Source: Escherichia coli (GTDB lineage: Bacteria > Pseudomonadota > Gammaproteobacteria > Enterobacterales > Enterobacteriaceae). From it: a stretch of DNA of 64,000 nt. The number at the start of each line of letters is the position of its first letter. Within the stretch, counting starts at the first letter, position 1. The notes beneath the pieces are model-generated. The model saw only the letters and a list, made by a program, of their open reading frames with translations. It ran no database searches and was not told the origin of the DNA. Of the stretch, positions 1,727-64,000 are shown one piece after another. Location: the NCBI RefSeq assembly GCF_024502345.1, contig NZ_JALDNN010000001.1; one strand, 5' to 3'. The position numbers were made by a program, and so were the translations under genes.

Positions 1727-4540
1727 ATGCCAATGGAGAGCTGTACGCAAATGAACGCCGTAGAAATTGAACAAGCCATCACGGATCTTGCAGAGCAACC
1801 CTTTGATCCTATAGAGTTTCCTTATGCTTTTCTTGAAGCCTTTGGTAACAAGGAAACGACTGTCAAACGCTTGCGCGCCGGTGCATCAAACAAATCCGAC
1901 TTGGGCGGTGTTCTCCAGAGCAATAATATTCACATTCTGACCTGCGAAGCAGGGACTGTGACTCAGATGTTGGCCGCGCTCAAGGCTAGCCCTGCGACAA
2001 CTAAAGCCAAGGCGAAGTTCATCCTGGCTACAGATGGCAAAGATTTCGAAGCTGAAGACCTCGTTAGCGGTCAGACTGTCGCTTGCGCCTTTAAAGACTT
2101 CCCAGATCACTTCGGCTTTTTCTTGCCATTAGCAGGCATTAGCACAGTTCGTCAGATTTGTGAGAACTCCTTTGACATTCGGGCCACTAGCCGGCTGAAT
2201 CGTCTGTATGTCGAGTTGTTGAAAGATAACCCTACCTGGGGGACGGCGGAGCGACGTCATGACATGAACAAATTCATGACTCGGCTGATCTTTTGTTTTT
2301 TCGCTGAGGATACTGACATTTTCGTGGGTAAGGGACGCTTTACTGAAACCGTTGCGCAGATGAGTACAAGAGATTCGTCGAATACGCATGAAGTTATCGC
2401 TACCTTGTTTCGTGCCATGAACACCAGTAACAAAGATAGAGCCGCCGCTGGCATCCCGCGCTGGGCCAATGAGTTTCCTTATGTCAACGGACGCTTGTTC
2501 TCTGGGAGTAATGATGTACCACTGTTCAGTAAGATTGCACGGTCTTATTTGCTCCATGTGGGTAGCCTTGACTGGACCAAGATTAATCCGGATATCTTTG
2601 GCTCGATGATTCAGGCAATTGCCGAAGACGAAGAACGCGGAGAGCTGGGGATGCATTACACCAGCGTACCCAACATCTTAAAAGTTTTGAATCCACTATT
2701 TCTGGACGACCTGCGCGCAAAGCTGGATGAGGCGGGTGACAATCCGCGTATGTTGCTTAACCTGCGTAAGCGCATTTCCCACATCCGTGTGTTCGACCCA
2801 GCGTGCGGTTCTGGTAACTTTTTGGTTATCGCGTACAAGGAAATGCGTGCCATTGAGGCCGAAATCAACAAGCGGCGTAATGAGCCAGATCGCGCCTCGG
2901 ATATCCCACTTACCAACTTTCGCGGGATTGAACTAAGAGATTTCCCGGCAGAGATCGCCCGCCTTGCGCTTGTTATCGCTGAGTACCAATGTGATGTACT
3001 GTACCGTGGGCTGCGGTTGGCCTTGGCTGAGCTTCTTCCGTTACGCAACGAAAATTGGATTACCTGTGGCAATGCACTACGGCTCGACTGGTTAAGAATT
3101 TGCCCGCCGACAGGAACAGGTGTGAAATTACATGGCGATGACTTGTTTGGATCTCCGCTTGATCAGGCAGAGATCGACTTTGAGAATGAAGGCGGAGAGA
3201 CATACATTTGCGGTAACCCACCATACCTTGGTTCAAAGTGGCAGACGGATGAACATAAAGCTGATCTTGGCACAATCTTTTCTGGTCGCGTGAAAAATTG
3301 GAAATCGCTCGATTATGTTGCTGGCTGGTTCCTGAAAGCCGCTGACTATGGTAGCCAGACAAGTTCCCAGGCTGCTTTTGTTGCCACTAATTCAATCAGC
3401 CAAGGGCAGCAAGTGTCGATTCTGTGGCCGGAAATATTCAAGGCAGGACAAGAGATTAGTTTCGCTTACACGAGCTTTAAGTGGTCGAACCTCGCTACTC
3501 ACAACGCCGGGGTCACAGTTGTTATCATCGGAATTTCTAACTGTGTAGGAAAGTCGCGACGCCTCTTTTCGGCTGGAGGAGACAATGGTGCGACGACGTG
3601 TCGTGAGGTGGAGCGCATCAACGCCTATTTGATCGCTGGCCCTAACATCATTGTGGAGGGGGACAGTTGTCCAGCCGACAGTCTTGCAACGATGCAGTTC
3701 GGTAACCACCCGTACTATGGTGCATCACTGATCTTTTCGAGATCTGAAGCACAGCAGATGATGTCTGTCGATCCGCGTACGGCGCGTTTTATTCGCCCAC
3801 TATATGGCTCCCAAGAGTTCATTTCCGCTGTGCCACGAGCCTGTCTATGGATTAACGACGATGAGGCTGACGAAGCGGGGACGATTCCTCTGATAGCTGA
3901 GCGTATGAGCGCCGTAGCAAGTGCTAGACGTGCAAAAAAACAAGACAAGGCAGCCCAGAAACTGGCTAAGACTCCATATCGCTTTCGCGACCAGCAGACA
4001 TCTACGAATCATATTCTTGTGGTTCCTCGAGTCAGTTCAGAGAACCGTCCTTGCTTGCCGGTTGGATTACTTGACTCTGACTCTATCGTTCAAGATCAAG
4101 CATTCGCCCTTTACGACGCTCCTCTCTGGAACCTCGCCATCATAGCGAGTCGCCTGCATCTAGTTTGGATCGCCACGGTTTGTGGAAAGTTAGAGACACG
4201 CTACCGCTATTCAAACACCCTCGGCTGGAATACTTTCCCGCTCCCAACACTCACTGAGAAAAATAAGGCAGACCTCACGCGCTGTGCAGAGGATATTCTT
4301 CTGACTAGGGAGCATCACTTCCCTGCAACCATTGCAGACCTTTATGACCCCGAGAAGATGCCAGACGACCTGCGTATTGTGCACGAGCGTAATGACGAAG
4401 TGCTTGAGCGTATTTACATTGGGCGCCGCTTTAAGAATGACACAGAGCGGCTTGAGAAGCTGTTTGACCTTTATACTAAGATGGCCGCTTCAACTGCATC
4501 GGGCAAAAGCAATAAACGTAAAGTGGGAACCAATGCATGA
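1727..4540 (+). CDS. MmeI-family (type IIG/IIL-like) N6-adenine DNA methyltransferase with target-recognition region; N-terminal nuclease motif apparently degenerate
   Basis: 937-aa ORF. SAM motif I FDPACGSGNFLV, catalytic motif IV GNPPY, and MmeI/PglX hallmarks FPYVNGRLF, HYTSVPNILKVLNPLFLDDL, FVATNSISQGQQVSILWP, RYRYSNTLGWNTFP, LYDPEKMP. Alternative start at 1751 (MNAVEIEQ). Confidence 0.85.
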   Translation: MPMESCTQMNAVEIEQAITDLAEQPFDPIEFPYAFLEAFGNKETTVKRLRAGASNKSDLGGVLQSNNIHILTCEAGTVTQMLAALKASPATTKAKAKFILATDGKDFEAEDLVSGQTVACAFKDFPDHFGFFLPLAGISTVRQICENSFDIRATSRLNRLYVELLKDNPTWGTAERRHDMNKFMTRLIFCFFAEDTDIFVGKGRFTETVAQMSTRDSSNTHEVIATLFRAMNTSNKDRAAAGIPRWANEFPYVNGRLFSGSNDVPLFSKIARSYLLHVGSLDWTKINPDIFGSMIQAIAEDEERGELGMHYTSVPNILKVLNPLFLDDLRAKLDEAGDNPRMLLNLRKRISHIRVFDPACGSGNFLVIAYKEMRAIEAEINKRRNEPDRASDIPLTNFRGIELRDFPAEIARLALVIAEYQCDVLYRGLRLALAELLPLRNENWITCGNALRLDWLRICPPTGTGVKLHGDDLFGSPLDQAEIDFENEGGETYICGNPPYLGSKWQTDEHKADLGTIFSGRVKNWKSLDYVAGWFLKAADYGSQTSSQAAFVATNSISQGQQVSILWPEIFKAGQEISFAYTSFKWSNLATHNAGVTVVIIGISNCVGKSRRLFSAGGDNGATTCREVERINAYLIAGPNIIVEGDSCPADSLATMQFGNHPYYGASLIFSRSEAQQMMSVDPRTARFIRPLYGSQEFISAVPRACLWINDDEADEAGTIPLIAERMSAVASARRAKKQDKAAQKLAKTPYRFRDQQTSTNHILVVPRVSSENRPCLPVGLLDSDSIVQDQAFALYDAPLWNLAIIASRLHLVWIATVCGKLETRYRYSNTLGWNTFPLPTLTEKNKADLTRCAEDILLTREHHFPATIADLYDPEKMPDDLRIVHERNDEVLERIYIGRRFKNDTERLEKLFDLYTKMAASTASGKSNKRKVGTNA

Positions 4541-6582
4541 GCAACAAGATTAGATCTGTACCGTCAGTTTCTGTTACCTACTCACGCAACGGAGCATCGA
4601 CCAAGGCTAATTCTCTTGGGATGCGTCCTATGCAAGAAAGGGCTTATGAGAAGCGCGGAGAACAATATCTTCTCATAAAGTCGCCGCCCGCCTCTGGCAA
4701 GAGTCGTGCGCTGATGTTCGTCGCACTCGATAAACTCGCAAACCAGGGGATCAAACAGGCAATCATTGTCGTGCCGGAAAAATCTATCGGCGCGAGCTTC
4801 AACGATGAACCGCTATCGCAGTTTGGATTCTGGGCTGATTGGCATGTTGAACCTAAGTGGAATCTGTGCAACGCCCCCGGTAACGACAACGGCGGCAAGG
4901 TAAAATCTTTCGGCTCTTTTCTTGAAAGTAGCGACAAGGTGCTTGTTTGTACACACGCAACCTTTCGCTTCGCGGTCGATGCCTACGGTGTAGAGGCGTT
5001 TGACGATCGCCTGATCGCCGTCGATGAATTTCACCATGTGTCCGCTAACCCGGATAACAAGCTTGGTCAGCATCTGGGACAGTTCATTGAGCGTGACAAG
5101 ACGCACATCGTGGCCATGACCGGCTCCTACTTCCGGGGAGATGCGGAAGCCGTTTTGGCTCCTCAGGATGAGTCTAGGTTCGATACCGTCACCTACACCT
5201 ACTACGAACAACTCAACGGTTACGAATACCTCAAACAGCTTGATATCGGATACTTCTTTTATAGTGGATCATACATTGATGACATCCTCAATGTCCTCGA
5301 TCCTGACAAGAAAACGATTATCCATATTCCCAACGTCAATTCGCGCGAGAGTACGAAGGATAAAATTAAGGAGGTGGAGCACATTCTGAGCGAGCTTGGC
5401 GATTGGCAAGGTGCGGATCCTACGACTGGTTTTCAGCTAGTCAAGCGCCCCGATGGCCATGTGTTGCGTATTGCTGACCTGGTGGACCCAGCCAGTCAAG
5501 GCAAGATTCAGGAAAGCCTCCGAGCTCCAGAAATGAAGACAGACCGTGACTATGTAGACATCATTATTGCACTTGGTATGGCGAAGGAAGGTTTCGACTG
5601 GATCTGGTGCGAACATGCGCTGACTGTTGGCTACCGTGCCAGCCTGACTGAGATCGTGCAGATTATCGGTCGCGCTACTCGCGACGCGCCGGGTAAAACC
5701 CGCGCGAGATTTACTAACTTGATCGCCGAGCCCGACGCTGTAGAGGGCGCAGTAACTGAGGCAGTCAACGATACCTTGAAAGCTATCGCGGCGAGCCTGT
5801 TGATGGAACAGGTACTGGCTCCGCGCTTCGAGTTCAAGCCCAAGAATCCTGAAATCGGTCCGACTCCAGGCTTTGATTATGGTGATGGAGGATATGACCC
5901 GGATAGCTGCAATTTTGGTGTTAATGAGCAGACAGGGACGTATCAAATCGAGATTAAGGGACTTGCCGAGCCTAGGAGCAAAGAGGCGGCACGTATCTGC
6001 CAGGAAGATTTAAACGAAGTGATCGCGGCCTTTGTGCAGGATAAGCCCGCCATCGAACGAGGCCTGTTCGATGAAGAGCTGATCCCTGAAGAGTTAACAC
6101 AGGTTCGTATGGGTAAGATCATCAAAGAAAAGTATCCTGAACTTGATGCTGAAGATCAGGAGGCTGTACGTCAGCATGCTATCGCCGCCCTTAACCTCAC
6201 GCAGCAGGCCAAGCGTCTTGCTACCGGTGAAAACGATGGGACGCTCAATACTGCTCTTATTGACGGAGTGCGTCGCTTTGCAATGGATGTGCGCGATTTA
6301 GACATAGACCTTATCGACCGCATCAATCCCTTTGGTGAAGCCTACGCTATCCTTGCTAAGACGATGAGTGAAGACAGTTTGAAGCAGGTCGCGGCGGCCA
6401 TCTCGGCCAAGCGTACTTCGATCACGCCTGAAGATGCCAAGGTGATCGCCAAGCGTGCCGCTGAATTCAAACGTGAACGTGGGCGCCTCCCATCGTTAAC
6501 TTCGCTGGATGCTTGGGAAAAACACCTTGCTGAAGGTGCAGCCGCGTTTATGCGTTTTAGGGCGGAGGGACGTTATGAGTAA
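4537..6582 (+). CDS. SF2 DExH-box helicase with ~280-aa C-terminal extension of unknown function
   Basis: 681-aa ORF. Walker A PPASGKS, motif II VDEFHH, motif III MTGSY, motif VI QIIGRATR. Start ATG overlaps the methyltransferase stop (ATGA at 4537-4540). Confidence 0.8.
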   Translation: MSNKIRSVPSVSVTYSRNGASTKANSLGMRPMQERAYEKRGEQYLLIKSPPASGKSRALMFVALDKLANQGIKQAIIVVPEKSIGASFNDEPLSQFGFWADWHVEPKWNLCNAPGNDNGGKVKSFGSFLESSDKVLVCTHATFRFAVDAYGVEAFDDRLIAVDEFHHVSANPDNKLGQHLGQFIERDKTHIVAMTGSYFRGDAEAVLAPQDESRFDTVTYTYYEQLNGYEYLKQLDIGYFFYSGSYIDDILNVLDPDKKTIIHIPNVNSRESTKDKIKEVEHILSELGDWQGADPTTGFQLVKRPDGHVLRIADLVDPASQGKIQESLRAPEMKTDRDYVDIIIALGMAKEGFDWIWCEHALTVGYRASLTEIVQIIGRATRDAPGKTRARFTNLIAEPDAVEGAVTEAVNDTLKAIAASLLMEQVLAPRFEFKPKNPEIGPTPGFDYGDGGYDPDSCNFGVNEQTGTYQIEIKGLAEPRSKEAARICQEDLNEVIAAFVQDKPAIERGLFDEELIPEELTQVRMGKIIKEKYPELDAEDQEAVRQHAIAALNLTQQAKRLATGENDGTLNTALIDGVRRFAMDVRDLDIDLIDRINPFGEAYAILAKTMSEDSLKQVAAAISAKRTSITPEDAKVIAKRAAEFKRERGRLPSLTSLDAWEKHLAEGAAAFMRFRAEGRYE

Positions 6583-7753
6583 TTCTGATTTAGACGATTT
6601 GGCGGCAGAACTTGCTGAATTTGCACCACCGGAGAAGAAAAAAGGACGTCCAGCCAGCGAGGAACGCATCATCGCAGGTTTTGAGGAAATCCAGCGCTTC
6701 GCTGACCAACATGGACGTGCGCCGCAACACGGCGAAGAGCGTGAGATCTTTGAGCGCCTCTATGCAGTGCGGCTCGACCGGCTACGCAGTCTCCCAGACT
6801 GCCGTGCCTTGCTAGAGCCGCTGGATCATCAAGGCTTATTGGCTGGAGGGGGTGATGTAGCGGAGTCAGCGGACGAAATTATCGATATCGATAATTTGGC
6901 TGCCGAACTGACGGATGTTTCCAGCGAGGATGATATCACAGTCTTGCGTCATGTTCGTGCTAGCGCCGAAAAGCGTGCTGTACAAGGGATCGCGGATCGC
7001 AAGCCGTGCGAGGATTTTGATACATTCAAACCGCTATTTGAACAGGTGCGCAGTGATCTAAGTTCAGGGTTAAGAGTGACCCGACCTTTTGGACAGTATG
7101 CAACGATTGAAGTGGGCCATTGGTTCATCCTGGATGGTCAAACGGCTTATGTGGCTGAGGAAGGTGAAGAGTTCGATTCTCCACAGGGGAAGAAAGATGC
7201 TCGGCTGCGTGTCATTTATTCGAATGGTACAGAAAGTAACCTGCTTCGGCTGTCATTAGTTCGTGCTTTGTATAAAGACGAAACAGCACGTCGAATTACC
7301 GATCCAGACATGGGGCCTTTATTCAGCGATGCTCTAGAAGAGAGCGATCTAGAAAGTGGCACCATTTATGTATTGCGTTCGCTATCAGATAACCCTTATG
7401 TGGCCGAACATCGTGATGTTATTCACAAGATTGGTGTGACTGGCGGCAAGGTCGAGACTCGTATTGCTAATGCTGAACACGATTCCACCTATCTGTTGGC
7501 GAAGGTAGAGGTGGTCGCTTCATACAAACTCGCAGGTATCAACCGCACCCGGATGGAAAACCTGTTTCACAGGTTGTTTGCACCCGCAAGGCTTAACATT
7601 ACCATTAACGACCGTTTCGGCCATCCAGTACAGCCCGAGGAATGGTTTCTCGTTCCGTTATTCGTTATCGATGAGGCTGTTGCACGTATTAAGGATGGTA
7701 GCATCATTGGGTATGTTTATGACCCCATGTCTGCGAAACTGGTGAAGGCATAG
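6575..7753 (+). CDS. T5orf172/MUG113 (GIY-YIG superfamily) domain protein, candidate nuclease, with acidic N-terminal domain of unknown function
   Basis: C-terminal GTIYVLRS...HKIGVTGGKVETRIANAEH...PEEWFLVPL fits the T5orf172 GIY-YIG-like pattern. GGAGGGA Shine-Dalgarno 6 nt upstream of ATG 6575; start overlaps the helicase stop (taa 6580-6582). The ORF track's upstream ATG at 6509 lacks an RBS. Confidence 0.65.
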   Translation: MSNSDLDDLAAELAEFAPPEKKKGRPASEERIIAGFEEIQRFADQHGRAPQHGEEREIFERLYAVRLDRLRSLPDCRALLEPLDHQGLLAGGGDVAESADEIIDIDNLAAELTDVSSEDDITVLRHVRASAEKRAVQGIADRKPCEDFDTFKPLFEQVRSDLSSGLRVTRPFGQYATIEVGHWFILDGQTAYVAEEGEEFDSPQGKKDARLRVIYSNGTESNLLRLSLVRALYKDETARRITDPDMGPLFSDALEESDLESGTIYVLRSLSDNPYVAEHRDVIHKIGVTGGKVETRIANAEHDSTYLLAKVEVVASYKLAGINRTRMENLFHRLFAPARLNITINDRFGHPVQPEEWFLVPLFVIDEAVARIKDGSIIGYVYDPMSAKLVKA

Positions 7754-7868: not shown

Positions 7869-8660
7869 ATGAATAGTAACCTGACCAAGATATGTTACCG
7901 TGGTGAGACTGGTGAAAGTGATCTAAGAACGTTGATACTTGGTGAGATTCTATATATCTCACTACGAGATGTTTTAATCACGCTGAATAAAGAAAATAGA
8001 GAAATCAACGCTGATTACACAGTAAAATCGATGGCTGGAATAATCAGGGCGCAATTACAGGCTCTTGACCCTGATGAGTATATTACTACAGATGCTGAAA
8101 ATGGTGTTTTTGAAGGTCAGAAAGAGATCTTCGTCACCCAGCCAGGTTTGTATCGAGTCATGTCAAGTGACCGAAGCGCTGCCGGTAAGCGCTTTCAAAA
8201 ATGGTTATTTCATGAAGTCATACCATCATTGACTAAGCATGGTGTATACCCGCCTCCGCCAGAAGCGAAAGGTTCAGCCCTTGCACAAATGGCTGAGATA
8301 CTTGCTCAAAATTCGCGAGCACTTGCTGACGCAATCCATAAACACGAAAAACTGGCCGAAGATGTCTCACAGGTTAAAGGTAAAGTTGCCAACGTTGAAA
8401 GCCGTCTGGAACTGTTAGAATCAGGTCCTTCCACTGTAACTGAAGATATGCATACTCTTGATAGCCGTCTCGCTTATTTGGACATGAGCATGGAAGAAAA
8501 GCATACCACCGAGACATTAGCCTGGTGCGAGAATATTTCTGTTCAAAATAACAGGAAGGTGATTCGCAAGGACTGTAGGGAGAATTCGCTCTTTACAACG
8601 CAGACTATCGACGAAGCAATCGCTATCATGACTGAAAGTGGAAAAATCACACCAAATTGA
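7869..8660 (+). CDS. Bro-N (KilA-N/antirepressor-like) domain protein with coiled-coil C-terminus
   Basis: 263-aa ORF. N-terminal ...DLRTLILGEILYISLRDVLITL...GLYRVMSSDRSAAGKRFQKWLFHEVIPSLTKHGVY resembles the Bro-N fold pattern. GAGGAT RBS upstream. Confidence 0.55.
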   Translation: MNSNLTKICYRGETGESDLRTLILGEILYISLRDVLITLNKENREINADYTVKSMAGIIRAQLQALDPDEYITTDAENGVFEGQKEIFVTQPGLYRVMSSDRSAAGKRFQKWLFHEVIPSLTKHGVYPPPPEAKGSALAQMAEILAQNSRALADAIHKHEKLAEDVSQVKGKVANVESRLELLESGPSTVTEDMHTLDSRLAYLDMSMEEKHTTETLAWCENISVQNNRKVIRKDCRENSLFTTQTIDEAIAIMTESGKITPN

Positions 8661-13620: not shown

Positions 13621-14862
13621 TCAAACAACAAGTTTTAATGCACCGGCACTAGATTCTACCATGCTTCCTTTATCTGCTCTTTTAACAAAATCAGCCCACC
13701 ATTGCATCATCGGCCTACGTTGCTCAAGATAATCACTGCGGTTATAAGCGCGACGTACCTCATTTTTGTCTACATGAGCAAGTGCGGCTTCAATGACATC
13801 AGGAGGAAATCCTTGCTCATTGAGGGCTGTACTGGCGATAGAACGCAAACCATGTGAAACCAGCACTCCCCCTAAACCGGCACGCTTGAGTGCAGCATTC
13901 ACGGTTTGACTGTTCATCGGCTGAGTGGGCTTAATGCGGCTTGGAAAAATAAAATCTCGGCCACCACTGAGCGGCTTCATCATTTCCAGAATAGCCAGAG
14001 CCCCATCAGATAATGGAACGGTATGGTCCCGGTTCATTTTCATTCGGGCTGCTGGAATTTTCCATTCGTTAGCATCAAAATCGATCTCATTCCACCGAGC
14101 TTCTGCGGCTTCTGCGGGGCGGGTGATGGTGAGAAGTTGCCACATGAACAGACACCGCGTAGACAGGCTGATACTGGCCGTACGCATAGTTTGCATCAAC
14201 TGAGGCAACTGATCCGGACGAATACTGGGCATGTTCTTTTTCTGAGGTTTCTCGAAGGCTTTGCCAATATTAACACTGGGAACTGCATCAATCAGGCCCG
14301 TGTTTTGGGCATAAATCATGACTTCATTGATCCGTTGGCAAAGACGGCGGACAGTTTCCAGTGCTCCTCGGGCCTGAACGGGTTGAACGGCTTGAACCAG
14401 TGTATGGGCTTTAATATCTGTAACGCTTACGTTGCCAATTGCGGGAAATATATCTCTTTCAAGCGAACGCCAGATATCATCAGCATAGTCCTCGGTTACA
14501 CTGGCTTTCTTCACATTCCACCAACGCTCGGCAACTAACAAGAAAGTGTTGGTTTTGGCCTCCTGAGAATTTCTTATCTGTTCTTTTTGGTATTCCTGAG
14601 GATCGATTCCTTTTGCCAGTAATACTTTGGATTCAGCTCTGAGCTTACGAGCATCGGAAAGCGAGACAGCAGGATAGGAACCGAAGCTCTGTTTAGTTCG
14701 CTGTTTTGTCAGAGGTCGGTAATAACGGAATTGCCAGAGCTTACTGCCACTGGATTTGATTAGCAGCGTCAGTCCGTCACCATCATACAACTGATAATCG
14801 GCATCTTTAGATTTGGCTGCTTTGATTTCCGTATCCGTTAACGGCTTGGTTTTTCTTGCCAC
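13621..14862 (-). CDS. intA: P4-type tyrosine integrase of a CP4-57-like island (GTG start)
   Basis: 413-aa ORF beginning (M)ARKTKPLTDTEIKAAKSKDADYQLYDGDGLTLLIKSSGSKLWQFRYY, immediately downstream of ssrA on the same strand. Confidence 0.9.
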   Translation of the reverse strand: MARKTKPLTDTEIKAAKSKDADYQLYDGDGLTLLIKSSGSKLWQFRYYRPLTKQRTKQSFGSYPAVSLSDARKLRAESKVLLAKGIDPQEYQKEQIRNSQEAKTNTFLLVAERWWNVKKASVTEDYADDIWRSLERDIFPAIGNVSVTDIKAHTLVQAVQPVQARGALETVRRLCQRINEVMIYAQNTGLIDAVPSVNIGKAFEKPQKKNMPSIRPDQLPQLMQTMRTASISLSTRCLFMWQLLTITRPAEAAEARWNEIDFDANEWKIPAARMKMNRDHTVPLSDGALAILEMMKPLSGGRDFIFPSRIKPTQPMNSQTVNAALKRAGLGGVLVSHGLRSIASTALNEQGFPPDVIEAALAHVDKNEVRRAYNRSDYLEQRRPMMQWWADFVKRADKGSMVESSAGALKLVV

Positions 14863-15044
14863 GGTGGAGTCTCCATGCTTTTAGGCCCAACAAAGACCAT
14901 AGATCTTTTCGTTGGGCCTATCAATGGGCCTAAAACAATTAGCTTAGGTAGGATCAAATCAGATAGCGCTGGACATAAAAAAGCCCGTAAGTCGTTGTGA
15001 CTACGGGTTTTTTGGTTTTTCTTGGATTGCTTTGGAATAAAATT

Positions 15045-15407
15045 TGGTGGAGCTGGCGGGAGTTGAACCCGCGTCCGAAATTCCTACATCCTCGGTACTA
15101 CATGCTTAGTCAGTCTTTACATTCGCTTGCCAGCTGCGGACGGACACGCCACTAACAAACTAGCCTGATTAAGTTTTAACGCTTCAACCCCAGGCAGGGC
15201 TTCCACGCGATCTCTTTTGGGTTTGACCTCTCTTGATCCCCGTCCTAAGAGCGGAGGCTAGGGAGAGAGGGCTCTAAGCAGGTTATTAAGCTGCTAAAGC
15301 GTAGTTTTCGTCGTTTGCGACTATTTTTTGCGGCTTTTTACGAGGCCAACCGCCCCTCGGCATGCACCTTGGGTTTCGCAAATCCCGTCGAATCCAGAAT
15401 CAGCCCC
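15045..15407 (-). ncRNA. ssrA: tmRNA (SsrA); its 3' end is the island integration site
   Basis: Reverse complement reads GGGGCTGATTCTGGATTCGACGGG...GGGTTCAACTCCCGCCAGCTCCACCA, with the tag-coding region and tRNA-like ends. Confidence 0.95.
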
Positions 15408-33165: not shown

Positions 33166-33195
33166 ATAAAAAAGGCCCCCCGATTTGGGAGGCCT
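33166..33195 (-). terminator. pheA attenuator terminator
   Basis: GC-rich hairpin ggcctcccaaatcgggggcc followed by a T-run on the minus strand, between pheL and pheA. Confidence 0.8.
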
Positions 33196-33242
33196 TATTG
33201 TTCGTCTTCGCATTCTGTTTCACACGACGAAACGCCTCCCAT

Positions 33243-33290
33243 TCAGGGGAAGGTAAAAAAGAATGCGAAGAAAAACGGTGTGTGTTTCAT
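33243..33290 (-). CDS. pheL: pheA leader peptide
   Basis: Minus-strand ATG AAA CAC ACA CCG TTT TTC TTC GCA TTC TTT TTT ACC TTC CCC TGA = MKHTPFFFAFFFTFP, seven Phe codons. Confidence 0.85.
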   Translation of the reverse strand: MKHTPFFFAFFFTFP

Positions 33291-33393
33291 GTTTGTTTCC
33301 TTAAGTGACTTTAGTACAGTACCCGTACTGTTTTCACGCTGTCAACAAAAAACGCGCCCGAAGGCGCGTTGGCGATACACTCAATATAAAGGA

Positions 33394-39730: not shown

Positions 39731-41272
<1,542 letters not shown>

Positions 41273-41357
41273 CCTTAAAGAAGCGTACTTTGTAGTGCTC
41301 ACACAGATTGTCTGATAGAAAGTGAAAAGCAAGGCGTCTTGCGAAGCAGACTGATAC

Positions 41358-41433
41358 GTCCCCTTCGTCTAGAGGCCCAGGACACCGCCCTTTCACGGCG
41401 GTAACAGGGGTTCGAATCCCCTAGGGGACGCCA
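41358..41433 (+). tRNA. gltW: tRNA-Glu (UUC) spacer tRNA
   Basis: GTCCCCTTCGTCTAGAGGCCCAGGACACCGCCCTTTCACGGCGGTAACAGGGGTTCGAATCCCCTAGGGGACGCCA. Confidence 0.97.
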
Positions 41434-41626
41434 CTTGCTGGTTTGTGAGTGAAAGTCACCTGCCTTGATATCTCAAAACTCATCTTCGGGTGATGTTTGA
41501 GATATTTGCTCTTTAAAAATCTGGATCAAGCTGAAAATTGAAACACTGAACAACGAAAGTTGTTCGTGAGTCTCTCAAATTTTCGCAACACGATGATGAA
41601 TCGAAAGAAACATCTTCGGGTTGTGA

Positions 41627-44529
<2,903 letters not shown>

Positions 44530-44621
44530 ACAACGCCGAAGGTGTTTTGGCGGATGAGAGAAGATTTTCAGCCTGATACAGATTAAATCAGAACGCAGAA
44601 GCGGTCTGATAAAACAGAATT

Positions 44622-44741
44622 TGCCTGGCGGCCGTAGCGCGGTGGTCCCACCTGACCCCATGCCGAACTCAGAAGTGAAACGCCGTAGCGCCGATGGTAG
44701 TGTGGGGTCTCCCCATGCGAGAGTAGGGAACTGCCAGGCAT
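44622..44741 (+). rRNA. rrfG: 5S ribosomal RNA
   Basis: TGCCTGGCGGCCGTAGCGCGGTGG...CTGCCAGGCAT; 120 nt. Confidence 0.97.
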
Positions 44742-62055: not shown

Positions 62056-63011
62056 TGAAGCAACTTTGGTTTGCCATGTCATTAGTGACAGGTAGCCTGT
62101 TATTCTCTGCTAACGCCTCGGCCACTCCCGCGTCCGGGGCGTTATTACAGCAGATGAACCTGGCCAGTCAGTCACTGAATTACGAGCTGTCATTCATCAG
62201 CATCAATAAACAGGGTGTTGAGTCTCTGCGTTATCGACATGCACGCCTCGATAACCGTCCTCTTGCACAATTGTTGCAAATGGATGGCCCGCGCCGGGAA
62301 GTGGTACAGCGCGGCAATGAAATCAGCTATTTTGAACCGGGACTTGAACCGTTCACGCTTAATGGCGATTACATTGTTGATTCTCTGCCATCGCTTATCT
62401 ATACCGATTTCAAACGCCTTTCTCCTTACTACGACTTTATCTCCGTCGGGCGCACGCGTATTGCTGATCGTCTTTGCGAAGTCATTCGCGTGGTTGCCCG
62501 AGATGGTACACGCTACAGCTACATCGTGTGGATGGACACCGAATCGAAATTACCGATGCGGGTTGATCTCCTTGATCGCGATGGTGAAACGCTGGAACAA
62601 TTTCGCGTGATTGCTTTTAACGTCAATCAGGATATCAGCAGCAGTATGCAGACGCTGGCGAAGGCAAATTTGCCGCCGTTGCTTTCTGTTCCTGTAGGTG
62701 AAAAAGCTAAATTCAGCTGGACGCCAACCTGGTTGCCACAGGGTTTTAGCGAAGTTTCCAGTAGTCGACGTCCGCTACCGACGATGGACAACATGCCTAT
62801 CGAATCACGTCTCTATTCCGACGGATTATTCAGCTTCTCGGTAAACGTTAACCGCGCTACGCCATCGAGCACCGATCAGATGTTGCGCACCGGACGCAGA
62901 ACCGTCAGTACAAGCGTACGTGATAACGCCGAAATCACTATTGTCGGTGAACTGCCGCCGCAAACGGCGAAACGCATTGCCGAGAATATTAAGTTCGGGG
63001 CAGCGCAATGA
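62055..63011 (+). CDS. rseB: Sigma-E regulatory protein RseB
   Basis: 318-aa ORF with signal peptide; overlaps rseA stop. Confidence 0.95.
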   Translation: MKQLWFAMSLVTGSLLFSANASATPASGALLQQMNLASQSLNYELSFISINKQGVESLRYRHARLDNRPLAQLLQMDGPRREVVQRGNEISYFEPGLEPFTLNGDYIVDSLPSLIYTDFKRLSPYYDFISVGRTRIADRLCEVIRVVARDGTRYSYIVWMDTESKLPMRVDLLDRDGETLEQFRVIAFNVNQDISSSMQTLAKANLPPLLSVPVGEKAKFSWTPTWLPQGFSEVSSSRRPLPTMDNMPIESRLYSDGLFSFSVNVNRATPSSTDQMLRTGRRTVSTSVRDNAEITIVGELPPQTAKRIAENIKFGAAQ

Positions 63012-63487
63012 TCAAAGAGTGGGCTACCGTCGTCTCCTGGCAAAACGGGCAGGCGCTGGTCAGTTGTGATGTTAAAGCTTCATGCAGCAGCTGCGCTTCA
63101 CGCGCCGGTTGCGGTAGCCGCGTGTTGAATAAACTTGGCCCGCAAACCACGCATACCATTGTCGTACCCTGTGATGAACCGTTAGTGCCGGGGCAAAAAG
63201 TGGAATTGGGGATCGCCGAAGGCAGCCTGCTTAGCTCCGCATTACTGGTTTATATGTCGCCGCTGGTGGGATTATTCCTTATCGCTTCGCTATTTCAGCT
63301 ACTCTTTGCTTCTGACGTCGCAGCATTATGTGGTGCGGTCCTCGGCGGTATTGGCGGGTTCCTGATTGCGCGCGGCTACTCGCGTAAGTTTGCTGCCCGG
63401 GCAGAATGGCAACCGATCATCTTAAGCGTGGCATTGCCGCCTGGCCTTGTGCGATTTGAAACATCTTCGGAAGACGCGAGCCAGTGA
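63008..63487 (+). CDS. rseC: RseC (SoxR-reducing system protein)
   Basis: 159-aa ORF with Cys motifs and hydrophobic C-terminal half. Confidence 0.9.
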   Translation: MIKEWATVVSWQNGQALVSCDVKASCSSCASRAGCGSRVLNKLGPQTTHTIVVPCDEPLVPGQKVELGIAEGSLLSSALLVYMSPLVGLFLIASLFQLLFASDVAALCGAVLGGIGGFLIARGYSRKFAARAEWQPIILSVALPPGLVRFETSSEDASQ

Positions 63488-63684
63488 TTTCACTGGCTTT
63501 GTTGCATTTTGCATAACAAATGCGAGGACGTTTCCAGATACCACAATCCATACGGTATGAACATTTCCTCGCCTCAATGTTGTAGTGTAGAATGCGGCGT
63601 TTCTATTAATACAGACGTTAAGCTCAGAACAGCGACTTCTAAAAGCCTGGTTAACCGGGCATTAAGGCACAATAATCATACTTT

Positions 63685-64000
63685 ATGAAGAATATACGTA
63701 ACTTTTCGATCATAGCTCACATTGACCACGGTAAATCGACGCTGTCTGACCGTATTATCCAGATCTGCGGTGGCCTGTCTGACCGTGAAATGGAGGCGCA
63801 GGTTCTCGATTCCATGGATCTTGAGCGTGAGCGTGGCATTACCATCAAAGCGCAAAGCGTGACGCTGGACTACAAAGCGTCTGACGGCGAAACCTATCAG
63901 CTTAACTTTATCGACACCCCGGGCCACGTAGACTTCTCCTATGAAGTTTCCCGTTCGCTGGCTGCCTGTGAAGGTGCATTGCTGGTGGTCGACGCCGGGC
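63685..64000 (+). CDS. lepA: Elongation factor 4 (LepA), 5' partial, runs off window end
   Basis: ATG at 63685 opens [26 protein letters not shown]...DTPGHVDF; not in the ORF track because no stop falls inside the window. Confidence 0.9.

Follow-up and report, generated by a model that had tools for sequence, protein, structure and literature searches.

Has the MmeI-like protein encoded near the start of this 64,000-nucleotide stretch of Escherichia coli DNA (the window) lost the residues with which MmeI cuts DNA, and, if so, could cleavage be supplied by the products of the two genes that follow? The original prediction gave a tentative yes to the first part on the basis of an alignment made by eye, and proposed for the second that gene 1 is a recognition and modification subunit, with cleavage coming in trans, plausibly from a downstream helicase and a GIY-YIG-like protein.

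The open reading frame of gene 1 can be read from an ATG at 1727, but the true start is the ATG at 1751 (MNAVEIE...), because the RefSeq annotation begins there and 80/80 orthologues align from that methionine. RefSeq names the product a class I SAM-dependent DNA methyltransferase (WP_077565017.1). It contains both FDPACGSGNFL and NPPY (N489-Y492), and all five MmeI Pfam domains (MmeI_N, MmeI_hel, MmeI_Mtase, MmeI_TRD and MmeI_C) are found in it. The features on which the analysis relies are as follows.

1751..4540, + strand: gene 1, YeeA/DnmA-type MmeI-family m6A DNA methyltransferase that carries a target-recognition domain (TRD) of its own, 929 aa
1751..2227, + strand: MmeI_N, N-terminal domain with a predicted restriction-endonuclease-like fold and no catalytic triad (Pfam E 4.8e-33, whole model)
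1895..1957, + strand: stretch SDLGGVLQSNNIHILTCEAGT, counterpart of MmeI D70...E80-X-K82 (hhalign and MAFFT)
2258..2500, + strand: MmeI helical spacer domain (Pfam PF20465, E 6e-25)
2723..3568, + strand: MmeI-type gamma-class N6-adenine methyltransferase domain (Pfam PF20473, E 1e-115)
3638..4252, + strand: target-recognition domain, the most variable region among orthologues (Pfam PF20466, E 5e-79)
4256..4489, + strand: MmeI C-terminal domain (Pfam PF20467, E 8e-16)
4537..6582, + strand: gene 2, SF2 DEAD/ResIII-type helicase, YeeB-like (Pfam DEAD and ResIII; 4 nt overlap with gene 1)
6575..7753, + strand: gene 3, T5orf172/MUG113 GIY-YIG-superfamily protein, YeeC-like (Pfam MUG113 and T5orf172; 8 nt overlap with gene 2)
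13621..15407, - strand: integrase intA (ORF 13621-14862) adjoining ssrA (tmRNA, 15045-15407), end of the operon-bearing genomic island

The catalytic residues of MmeI are D70, E80 and K82 (PMC2731913). When gene 1 is compared with MmeI (5hr4) by phmmer, the match is strong (E 4e-138) and runs from query residue 96, which corresponds to MmeI 108, to residue 935. The N-terminal 172 aa alone had no match among PDB sequences in phmmer even at E 10, and a direct pairwise alignment to the MmeI nuclease domain was therefore impossible. Profile-profile alignment with hhalign was used instead, pairing the N-domains of gene 1 relatives with those of MmeI-type proteins that carry G(F/Y)(V/I)DL...E(M/H)KSRG. 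The two groups match with a probability of 92-94% in the register SDL-GG---VLQSNNIHILTCEAGT versus KGGFIDLLWRGQLLVEHKSRGK, and the same register was obtained with MAFFT on a mixed set of sequences from both groups. MmeI D70 is lost to a 3-residue deletion, while E80 lies opposite L63 and K82 opposite C65 (numbered from the methionine at nt 1751). The two strings quoted in the original prediction, FPYAFLEAFG and LGGVLQSNNIHILTCEAG, are both present in the translation of 1727-4540. Its ungapped register, which set D70 opposite L55, E80 opposite C65 and K82 opposite A67, was displaced by the 3-residue gap at D70, but its conclusion stands: two independent alignments agree that the D...ExK motif is lost.

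The loss extends to every orthologue examined. In column counts over the window and 80 orthologues of different species (81 sequences), position 63 is occupied by A, K, L or S and position 65 by C, A, S or V, and none of the 80 orthologues has an acidic-X-Lys arrangement at the site of MmeI E80-X-K82. Gene 1 thus lacks the conserved D...ExK of the MmeI family proper, the nuclease-proficient Type IIL enzymes. These comparisons confirm, at the level of sequence, that the DNA-cutting residues of MmeI are absent from the N-domain, and gene 1 is presumably unable to cut by the MmeI mechanism.

The domain that lost these residues is, judging from its conservation, not decaying and under strong purifying selection. 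It is as conserved among orthologues as the methyltransferase domain, and mean identity is 45% in the TRD versus 72-83% in the other domains. A TRD that diversifies while the N-domain and methyltransferase are conserved is what would be expected if target specificity were under selection. As predicted by AlphaFold, the N-domain has retained a restriction-endonuclease-like fold, with matches to the folds of DrdV, HsdR and BpuSI. Invariant residues of the N-domain in this lineage include N47, D50, H61, S80, T83, D95 and E102.

With the fold kept, the N-domain might still cut DNA from an active site that has moved or changed. Its sole (D/E)-X-K is D95-G-K97, which we rejected as a relocated motif: K97 is variable among orthologues, and D95 is invariant in the nuclease-proficient group too. 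An acidic cluster formed by D95, E100 and E102 can be likened to the D...ExE arrangement of BamHI, and across the 81 sequences D95 and E102 never vary and position 100 is mostly E. This cluster was also rejected. Nuclease-proficient MmeI-type proteins have the same invariant D95 without using it in catalysis, and E100/E102 align with L/K in B. subtilis-type YeeA and are therefore not conserved across the group. In the AlphaFold model, moreover, the three residues lie on strands that follow two helices rather than on the strands bearing the canonical site. Neither YeeA nor its Moraxella homologue MslORFHP showed endonuclease activity in vitro (PMC2731913), and we regard a surviving variant site as very improbable.

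Proteins of this kind were reported in 2009 as a second group of MmeI homologues, with B. subtilis YeeA/YeeB/YeeC as the type example, and cleavage in trans was already proposed for them at that time (Morgan et al. 2009; PMC2731913). YeeA, also called DnmA, produces m6A at GACGAG (PMC7261158); that it methylates a single strand of an asymmetric site is likewise published (PMC2731913; PMC7261158). Gene 1 shares the features of this group: it resembles MmeI throughout except for the first ~100 residues (phmmer), it has no PD-ExK at the positions of D70, E80 and K82 (hhalign, MAFFT and the 81-sequence column counts), and it is flanked by genes for a DEAD-superfamily helicase and a GIY-YIG/T5orf172 protein (genes 2 and 3). 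Its N-domain is homologous to that of B. subtilis YeeA: BLASTP aligns gene 1 collinearly from residue 1 with a B. subtilis-type fragment, P0271 (38% identity over 463 aa, E 8e-104). We take this fragment to be YeeA, having retrieved it by a 100% match to a YeeA query sequence, and we infer its B. subtilis origin from the genes upstream (GatB, TetR, a 1052-aa protein, DAGK, a TRAM/U5 methyltransferase and a resolvase). The contig of P0271 ends inside the gene, so the equation of genes 2 and 3 with YeeB and YeeC is based on domain content and the literature. By these features gene 1 belongs to the YeeA/DnmA group; the nuclease loss and the trio are real but have been known since 2009, and the loss itself goes no further than published work.

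The overlaps of 4 nt between genes 1 and 2 and of 8 nt between genes 2 and 3 suggest that the three form one operon (the ORF of gene 3 can be extended upstream to 6509). The same SF2 helicase and T5orf172/GIY-YIG protein lie downstream at each of the 55 related loci whose sequence reaches far enough, drawn from Proteobacteria, Verrucomicrobia, Cyanobacteria, Bacteroidota and others, with helicase identities of 63-90%. One further locus, from a metagenome, carries an inserted toxin-antitoxin pair. A mixed alignment of both groups served for locus sampling and retained 80 loci, every one a close relative of the YeeA type; the control therefore consists of only the published statement and three nuclease-proficient MmeI-type loci, in which neither partner gene was found (0/3). 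A stand-alone gene without linked partners, the arrangement of the MmeI family proper, is not that of the gene 1 lineage.

The motifs of both partners are also intact. In 67 orthologues, helicase motifs I (GKS, K55), II (DEFH, D163/E164), III (TGS) and VI (QIIGRATR) show conservation of 95% or more. Gene 3, named by RefSeq as a GIY-YIG nuclease family protein, matches Pfam MUG113 (E 7.5e-13) and T5orf172 (E 1.2e-10) over residues 262-372. Its putative nuclease activity is assumed for the T5orf172 branch from superfamily membership, and the original description of this domain made it a putative DNA-binding one (PMC9973331). Such a history would suit a defence system that does not cleave, in which the helicase and the T5orf172 protein block replication or act otherwise, by BREX- or DISARM-like exclusion or abortive infection, and methylation marks self only. 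PglX and DrmMI, both MmeI-like, work in systems that have no classical restriction nuclease, and PADLOC reports partial matches of gene 1 to both; further, Bacillus phage genomes do not avoid the DnmA motif (PMC9973331). We nevertheless consider this account improbable. The GIY-YIG signature residues (Y, G, R and E, in G..YVLRS, HK.GVT, R296 and the E356 of EWF) are conserved in 64 orthologues of gene 3, and among the window ORFs and the annotated neighbourhood there are no other BREX or DISARM genes.

The setting of the operon bears on whether it is functional. The integrase gene intA, which occupies the equivalent place in E. coli annotation, adjoins ssrA, and we infer that the operon rides on a mobile, ssrA-integrated island. 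The stretch matching the operon region contains annotated IS66 elements in many E. coli genomes.

The genetics of the trio are conflicting. Deletion of dnmA, yeeB or yeeC in B. subtilis left transformation and infection by three phages unchanged, and the authors called DnmA-YeeB-YeeC a relic (PMC9973331; PMC7261158), whereas Vibrio crassostreae owes resistance to one phage group to yeeAB (bioRxiv 10.1101/2021.05.05.442762). By extension, gene 1 could be a solitary (orphan) methyltransferase with an epigenetic role or no defence role, accompanied by helicase and GIY-YIG passengers without restriction activity. The B. subtilis mutants and the IS66 annotations speak for such a relic, as does a distant homologue (P0240, locus L003) that stands by itself, neither a helicase nor a GIY-YIG gene lying within 6 kb. 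However, the three window ORFs are intact with complete motifs, the trio is kept across phyla with a well-conserved helicase, the TRD diversifies while the other domains do not, the operon is carried on a mobile island, and the Vibrio system protects its host. On balance, we judge a relic unlikely for the E. coli operon.

The best explanation, which we hold with moderate confidence, is that gene 1 is a YeeA/DnmA-group protein with a dead nuclease domain that forms, with its partners, one restriction-modification-like system. The evidence is consistent with the division of labour put forward in the original prediction, in which gene 1 is limited to recognition and modification and the downstream helicase and GIY-YIG protein carry out cleavage: synteny is complete at 55/55 loci, the motifs are intact, and YeeA and MslORFHP showed no endonuclease activity in vitro. 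Gene 1 appears to be translationally coupled to the SF2 helicase and T5orf172/GIY-YIG protein, and on the ssrA-integrated island the three would act as a single defence system. Its recognition of an asymmetric site and methylation of one strand, as by MmeI and DnmA, would protect the host, while its dead nuclease domain might, speculatively, serve to dock or license the partners. Where a site is unmethylated, the helicase would translocate on DNA with ATP and the GIY-YIG protein would cut. The trio would then be the split counterpart of Type I and Type ISP enzymes.

More tentatively, and with somewhat less than even confidence, we propose that the conserved dead nuclease-fold domain has been repurposed so that loading of the YeeB translocase and YeeC GIY-YIG nuclease depends on the methylation state that the MmeI-like subunit reads, yielding a split, Type ISP-like restriction machine protected by single-strand methylation; that the E. 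coli copy is a tractable model for it; and that the methyltransferase-helicase slot in related loci recruits varied accessory defence or toxin genes. The literature searched, with most subscription journals outside its scope, contained no biochemical reconstitution of trans cleavage. YeeABC-type trios are widespread and strictly syntenic and their mechanism is still the hypothesis of 2009, and the intact E. coli copy offers a convenient experimental starting point. Automatic annotation misleads here: PADLOC calls gene 1 a Type IIG REase-MTase, and some RefSeq records read 'type IIL restriction-modification enzyme MmeI'. With genes 2 and 3 taken together as a system, PADLOC gives no significant model (weak PbeA matches for the helicase, none for the GIY-YIG protein), and NCBIfam has nothing for genes 2-4.

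Compared with known systems, gene 1 keeps the spacer, methyltransferase, TRD and C-terminal domains of MmeI and other Type IIL enzymes such as DrdV, but it differs from them in lacking the catalytic D70, E80 and K82 and in never standing alone, having two partner genes. Like PglX of BREX and DrmMI of DISARM, it would be an MmeI-related methyltransferase without nuclease activity inside a multi-gene defence system. Its resemblance to these proteins is, however, partial: the PADLOC match to PglX has E ~1e-6 over 70 aa and that to DrmMI E 7e-32 over the C-terminal half, and NCBIfam BREX PglX scores are sub-threshold (21-26 bits versus cut-offs of 400-900), which does not make it a PglX. The closest likeness is to YeeA-YeeB-YeeC, in the order of methyltransferase, DEAD-type helicase and T5orf172/GIY-YIG protein as well as in the MmeI-like sequence beyond the first ~100 aa without PD-ExK. 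The E. coli trio differs as a proteobacterial lineage on the E. coli ssrA island, its N-domain has invariant H61 and E102 that are absent from the Bacillus protein, and several stretches in the C-terminal domains of the Vibrio proteins are missing from B. subtilis YeeB and YeeC (PMC9973331). Like Type ISP (LlaGI, LlaBIII) and Type I R-M enzymes, the trio brings together a methyltransferase, a TRD, an SF2 ATPase and a nuclease, here a putative one. It has no separate HsdS, unlike Type I, and where Type ISP enzymes are single polypeptides with an Mrr or PD-(D/E)XK nuclease, its functions are spread over three ORFs and its candidate nuclease is of the GIY-YIG type. By analogy with both, ATP-driven translocation from an asymmetric site would be expected.

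Three closely packed genes on the plus strand form an operon in the window, followed by a BRO-N domain gene. The annotations of the first three are those of RefSeq for near-identical E. coli chromosomes:

1727-4540 (ORF; start at 1751), plus strand, gene 1: class I SAM-dependent DNA methyltransferase, 929 aa
4537-6582, plus strand, gene 2: DEAD/DEAH box helicase
6509/6575-7753, plus strand, gene 3: GIY-YIG nuclease family protein
7869-8660, downstream of the operon: BRO-N domain gene

Genes 1 and 2 overlap at 4537-4540, with no gap between them. The longest ORF of gene 1 opens at the ATG at 1727, and the RefSeq methionine lies at nucleotide 1751. Because 80/80 orthologues align from the latter residue (MNAVEIE...), the alignment places the true start at ATG 1751 rather than 1727, and gene 1 residues are numbered from it. 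Gene 3 probably starts at 6575 rather than 6509.

All five MmeI domains are matched in gene 1 by Pfam, with MmeI_N covered across its full model (E 4.8e-33), and the PADLOC Type IIG model spans the full length of the protein (E 4e-284). In pairwise phmmer, the match to MmeI (PDB 5hr4; E 4e-138) begins at residue 96 of gene 1, corresponding to MmeI residue 108, and the N-terminal 172 aa used as a query found no match in the PDB sequence set. In MmeI, D70, E80, and K82 are catalytic and fully conserved across active family members (PMC2731913), and every MmeI-type N-domain that we gathered by searching with MmeI residues 108-469 contains G(F/Y)(V/I)DL...E(M/H)KSRG. Relatives of the gene 1 N-domain were collected by an exhaustive HMMER search (1,369 representatives at E <= 0.001). 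The two profiles align in hhalign with a probability of 92-94%, in the register SDL-GG---VLQSNNIHILTCEAGT (gene 1 type) versus KGGFIDLLWRGQLLVEHKSRGK (MmeI type), which is reproduced by a MAFFT alignment of the mixed set. In this register, D70 therefore falls within a three-residue deletion, E80 lies opposite L63, and K82 lies opposite C65. The original prediction, that gene 1 has lost the PD-(D/E)XK residues, is thus borne out, and the strings it quoted are found in the translation; its ungapped register, which paired D70 with L55, E80 with C65, and K82 with A67, is off by the three-residue gap at D70. The AlphaFold model of the N-domain matches restriction-endonuclease folds (DrdV, HsdR, BpuSI), and on this model the domain keeps a PD-(D/E)XK-type fold but has lost the residues for catalysis, rather than having been replaced by something unrelated.

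Scanning a single genome from each species gave 80 loci with 64-89% identity across the first 470 aa of gene 1, spanning Proteobacteria, Verrucomicrobia, Cyanobacteria, Bacteroidota, Gemmatimonadota, and others. E-X-K occurs at positions 63-65 in 0 of 81 sequences, position 63 being A/K/L/S and position 65 C/A/S/V. The residues F23, F27, L28, L41, N47, L55, H61, L77, S80, T83, T94, D95, G96, and E102 are invariant throughout this set. Relative to the window protein, the N-domain averages 73% identity and the methyltransferase domain 72%, and each has 36-37% of its columns conserved at 95% or more, versus 45% identity and 8% of columns in the TRD. Judging from the alignment, this pattern, in which the TRD varies while the rest of the protein is kept, is as expected for target specificity under diversifying selection. 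The strong constraint on the N-domain is not what a decaying remnant would show. It is highly improbable that the acidic residues kept here mark a nuclease with a relocated active site, as D95 is just as invariant among triad-bearing MmeI-type enzymes, B. subtilis-type YeeA does not retain E100 and E102, and the YeeA protein by itself has no cutting activity.

The partner genes have intact motifs. Gene 2 contains DEAD/ResIII domains, and its helicase motifs I (GKS, K55), II (DEFH), III (TGS), and VI (QIIGRATR) reach 95% conservation or more among 67 orthologues. Gene 3 carries a T5orf172/MUG113 domain at its C-terminal end, with the GIY-YIG-type signature G..YVLRS / HK.GVT / R296 / EWF kept across 64 orthologues. 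No Pfam domain covers the last ~270 residues of the helicase or the first ~260 of the GIY-YIG protein, yet both stretches contain conserved blocks. Of the three proteins, the helicase is the best conserved across 60+ species (63-90% identity); the methyltransferase lies at 58-77% and the GIY-YIG protein at 44-78%.

Both partners are present on the same strand in 55/55 loci with at least 5.5 kb after gene 1 (55 of the 80 qualify), and at one additional locus, from a metagenome, the trio is also present but interrupted by a RelB/YafQ pair. A helicase/T5orf172 neighbor is absent from all three triad-keeping MmeI-type loci of a small control (L087, L088, and L089). Gene calling splits the MmeI-type gene of each of these loci into two ORFs (N/spacer/MTase, then TRD/C), and the copies may be disrupted; matches in the control search were mostly two-ORF, truncated proteins of this sort. 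A distant YeeA-type homologue (L003 6001-8751, GCA_003280135.1), whose N-domain is 44% identical and likewise without the triad, has no helicase/T5orf172 gene in the 6 kb to each side of it and is possibly a true orphan methyltransferase of the YeeA group. In 39/66 related loci, an insert of 0.4-4.8 kb separates the methyltransferase from the helicase, for example at L010 4771-5859, L008/L011, L016, L015, and L012 (among L005-L084) and at L004 5089-5679. Inserted genes include a VapC-like PIN toxin, a RelB/YafQ pair, and the PADLOC candidate defence family PDC-S02 (PD-DExK, E 1e-165), along with several small families with no match. The gap resembles a slot for variable cargo of the kind present at some Type I R-M loci.

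Further features of the window are as follows:

13621-14862, minus strand: intA integrase, marking the island end and adjoining ssrA
15045-15407, minus strand: ssrA (tmRNA)
33166-33291: Phe leader
39731-44739: rRNA operon with tRNA-Glu
62972-63803: AsrC, antisense to rseC

With intA and ssrA downstream, the operon is cargo carried by an island integrated at ssrA; the last three features are ordinary landmarks consistent with an E. coli chromosome. In matching E. coli genomes, GTPase, WYL, antirestriction, RadC, and CbtA/YeeU-type genes lie upstream of the operon, and BRO-N, inovirus Gp2-family, YagL, and YagM genes lie on its far side; window ORFs after the BRO-N gene correspond to the latter three. 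Of 5,426 complete E. coli genomes, 88 carry the coding sequence of the N-domain, chromosomally in every case, and only 3 of the 88 reach at least 99% identity. The window copy of the operon is intact. In many E. coli genomes (H1, H6-H15), IS66-family elements are annotated inside the operon-matching stretch besides the three genes (coordinates listed with this observation: L086 6755-8184), and strain 2013C-4282 has an IS66 remnant directly upstream of the methyltransferase.

One database protein (P0271) is identical to the YeeA sequence, and the genes upstream of it on its contig fit the B. subtilis yeeA neighborhood; we take it to be YeeA. P0271 is collinear with gene 1 from residue 1 (38% identity), whereas MmeI aligns only from residue 96, which by sequence places the window protein in the YeeA group of Morgan et al. 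2009. That study described a second set of MmeI homologues, exemplified by B. subtilis YeeA, that lack the PD-ExK motif, are unlike MmeI in the first 100 residues, and invariably have as neighbors a helicase of the DEAD type (YeeB-like) and a protein with a GIY-YIG motif (YeeC-like); no endonuclease activity was seen for YeeA or for a homologue from Moraxella, and the authors speculated that the N-domain contacts separate helicase and nuclease subunits for scission (PMC2731913).

On balance, we favor a three-subunit restriction-modification-like system, in which gene 1 would recognize an asymmetric site and methylate only one of the two strands. Its inactive nuclease domain would serve to dock or license the two partner proteins; translocation would fall to the helicase, and cleavage of unmethylated DNA to the GIY-YIG protein. 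Functional evidence on the YeeA group after 2009 is mixed. YeeA (DnmA) produces m6A at GACGAG and transformation is not restricted (Nye et al. 2020, PMC7261158); dnmA-yeeB-yeeC synteny is conserved, with no phage phenotype in B. subtilis, where the system was termed a relic (2023 mBio, PMC9973331). That the trio is a non-functional relic, or gene 1 an orphan methyltransferase, seems to us fairly unlikely. In Vibrio crassostreae, resistance to one phage group is mediated by yeeAB (Piel et al. preprint, bioRxiv 10.1101/2021.05.05.442762). An exclusion mechanism without cleavage is an improbable account of the trio. The intact E. coli copy would be a convenient model for the mechanism of the trio. 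The loss of the triad is correctly observed in the original prediction and the interpretation given to it there is reasonable, but both are already known for the YeeA group, from the 2009 publication and from the studies of 2020-2023 that took the subject up again.
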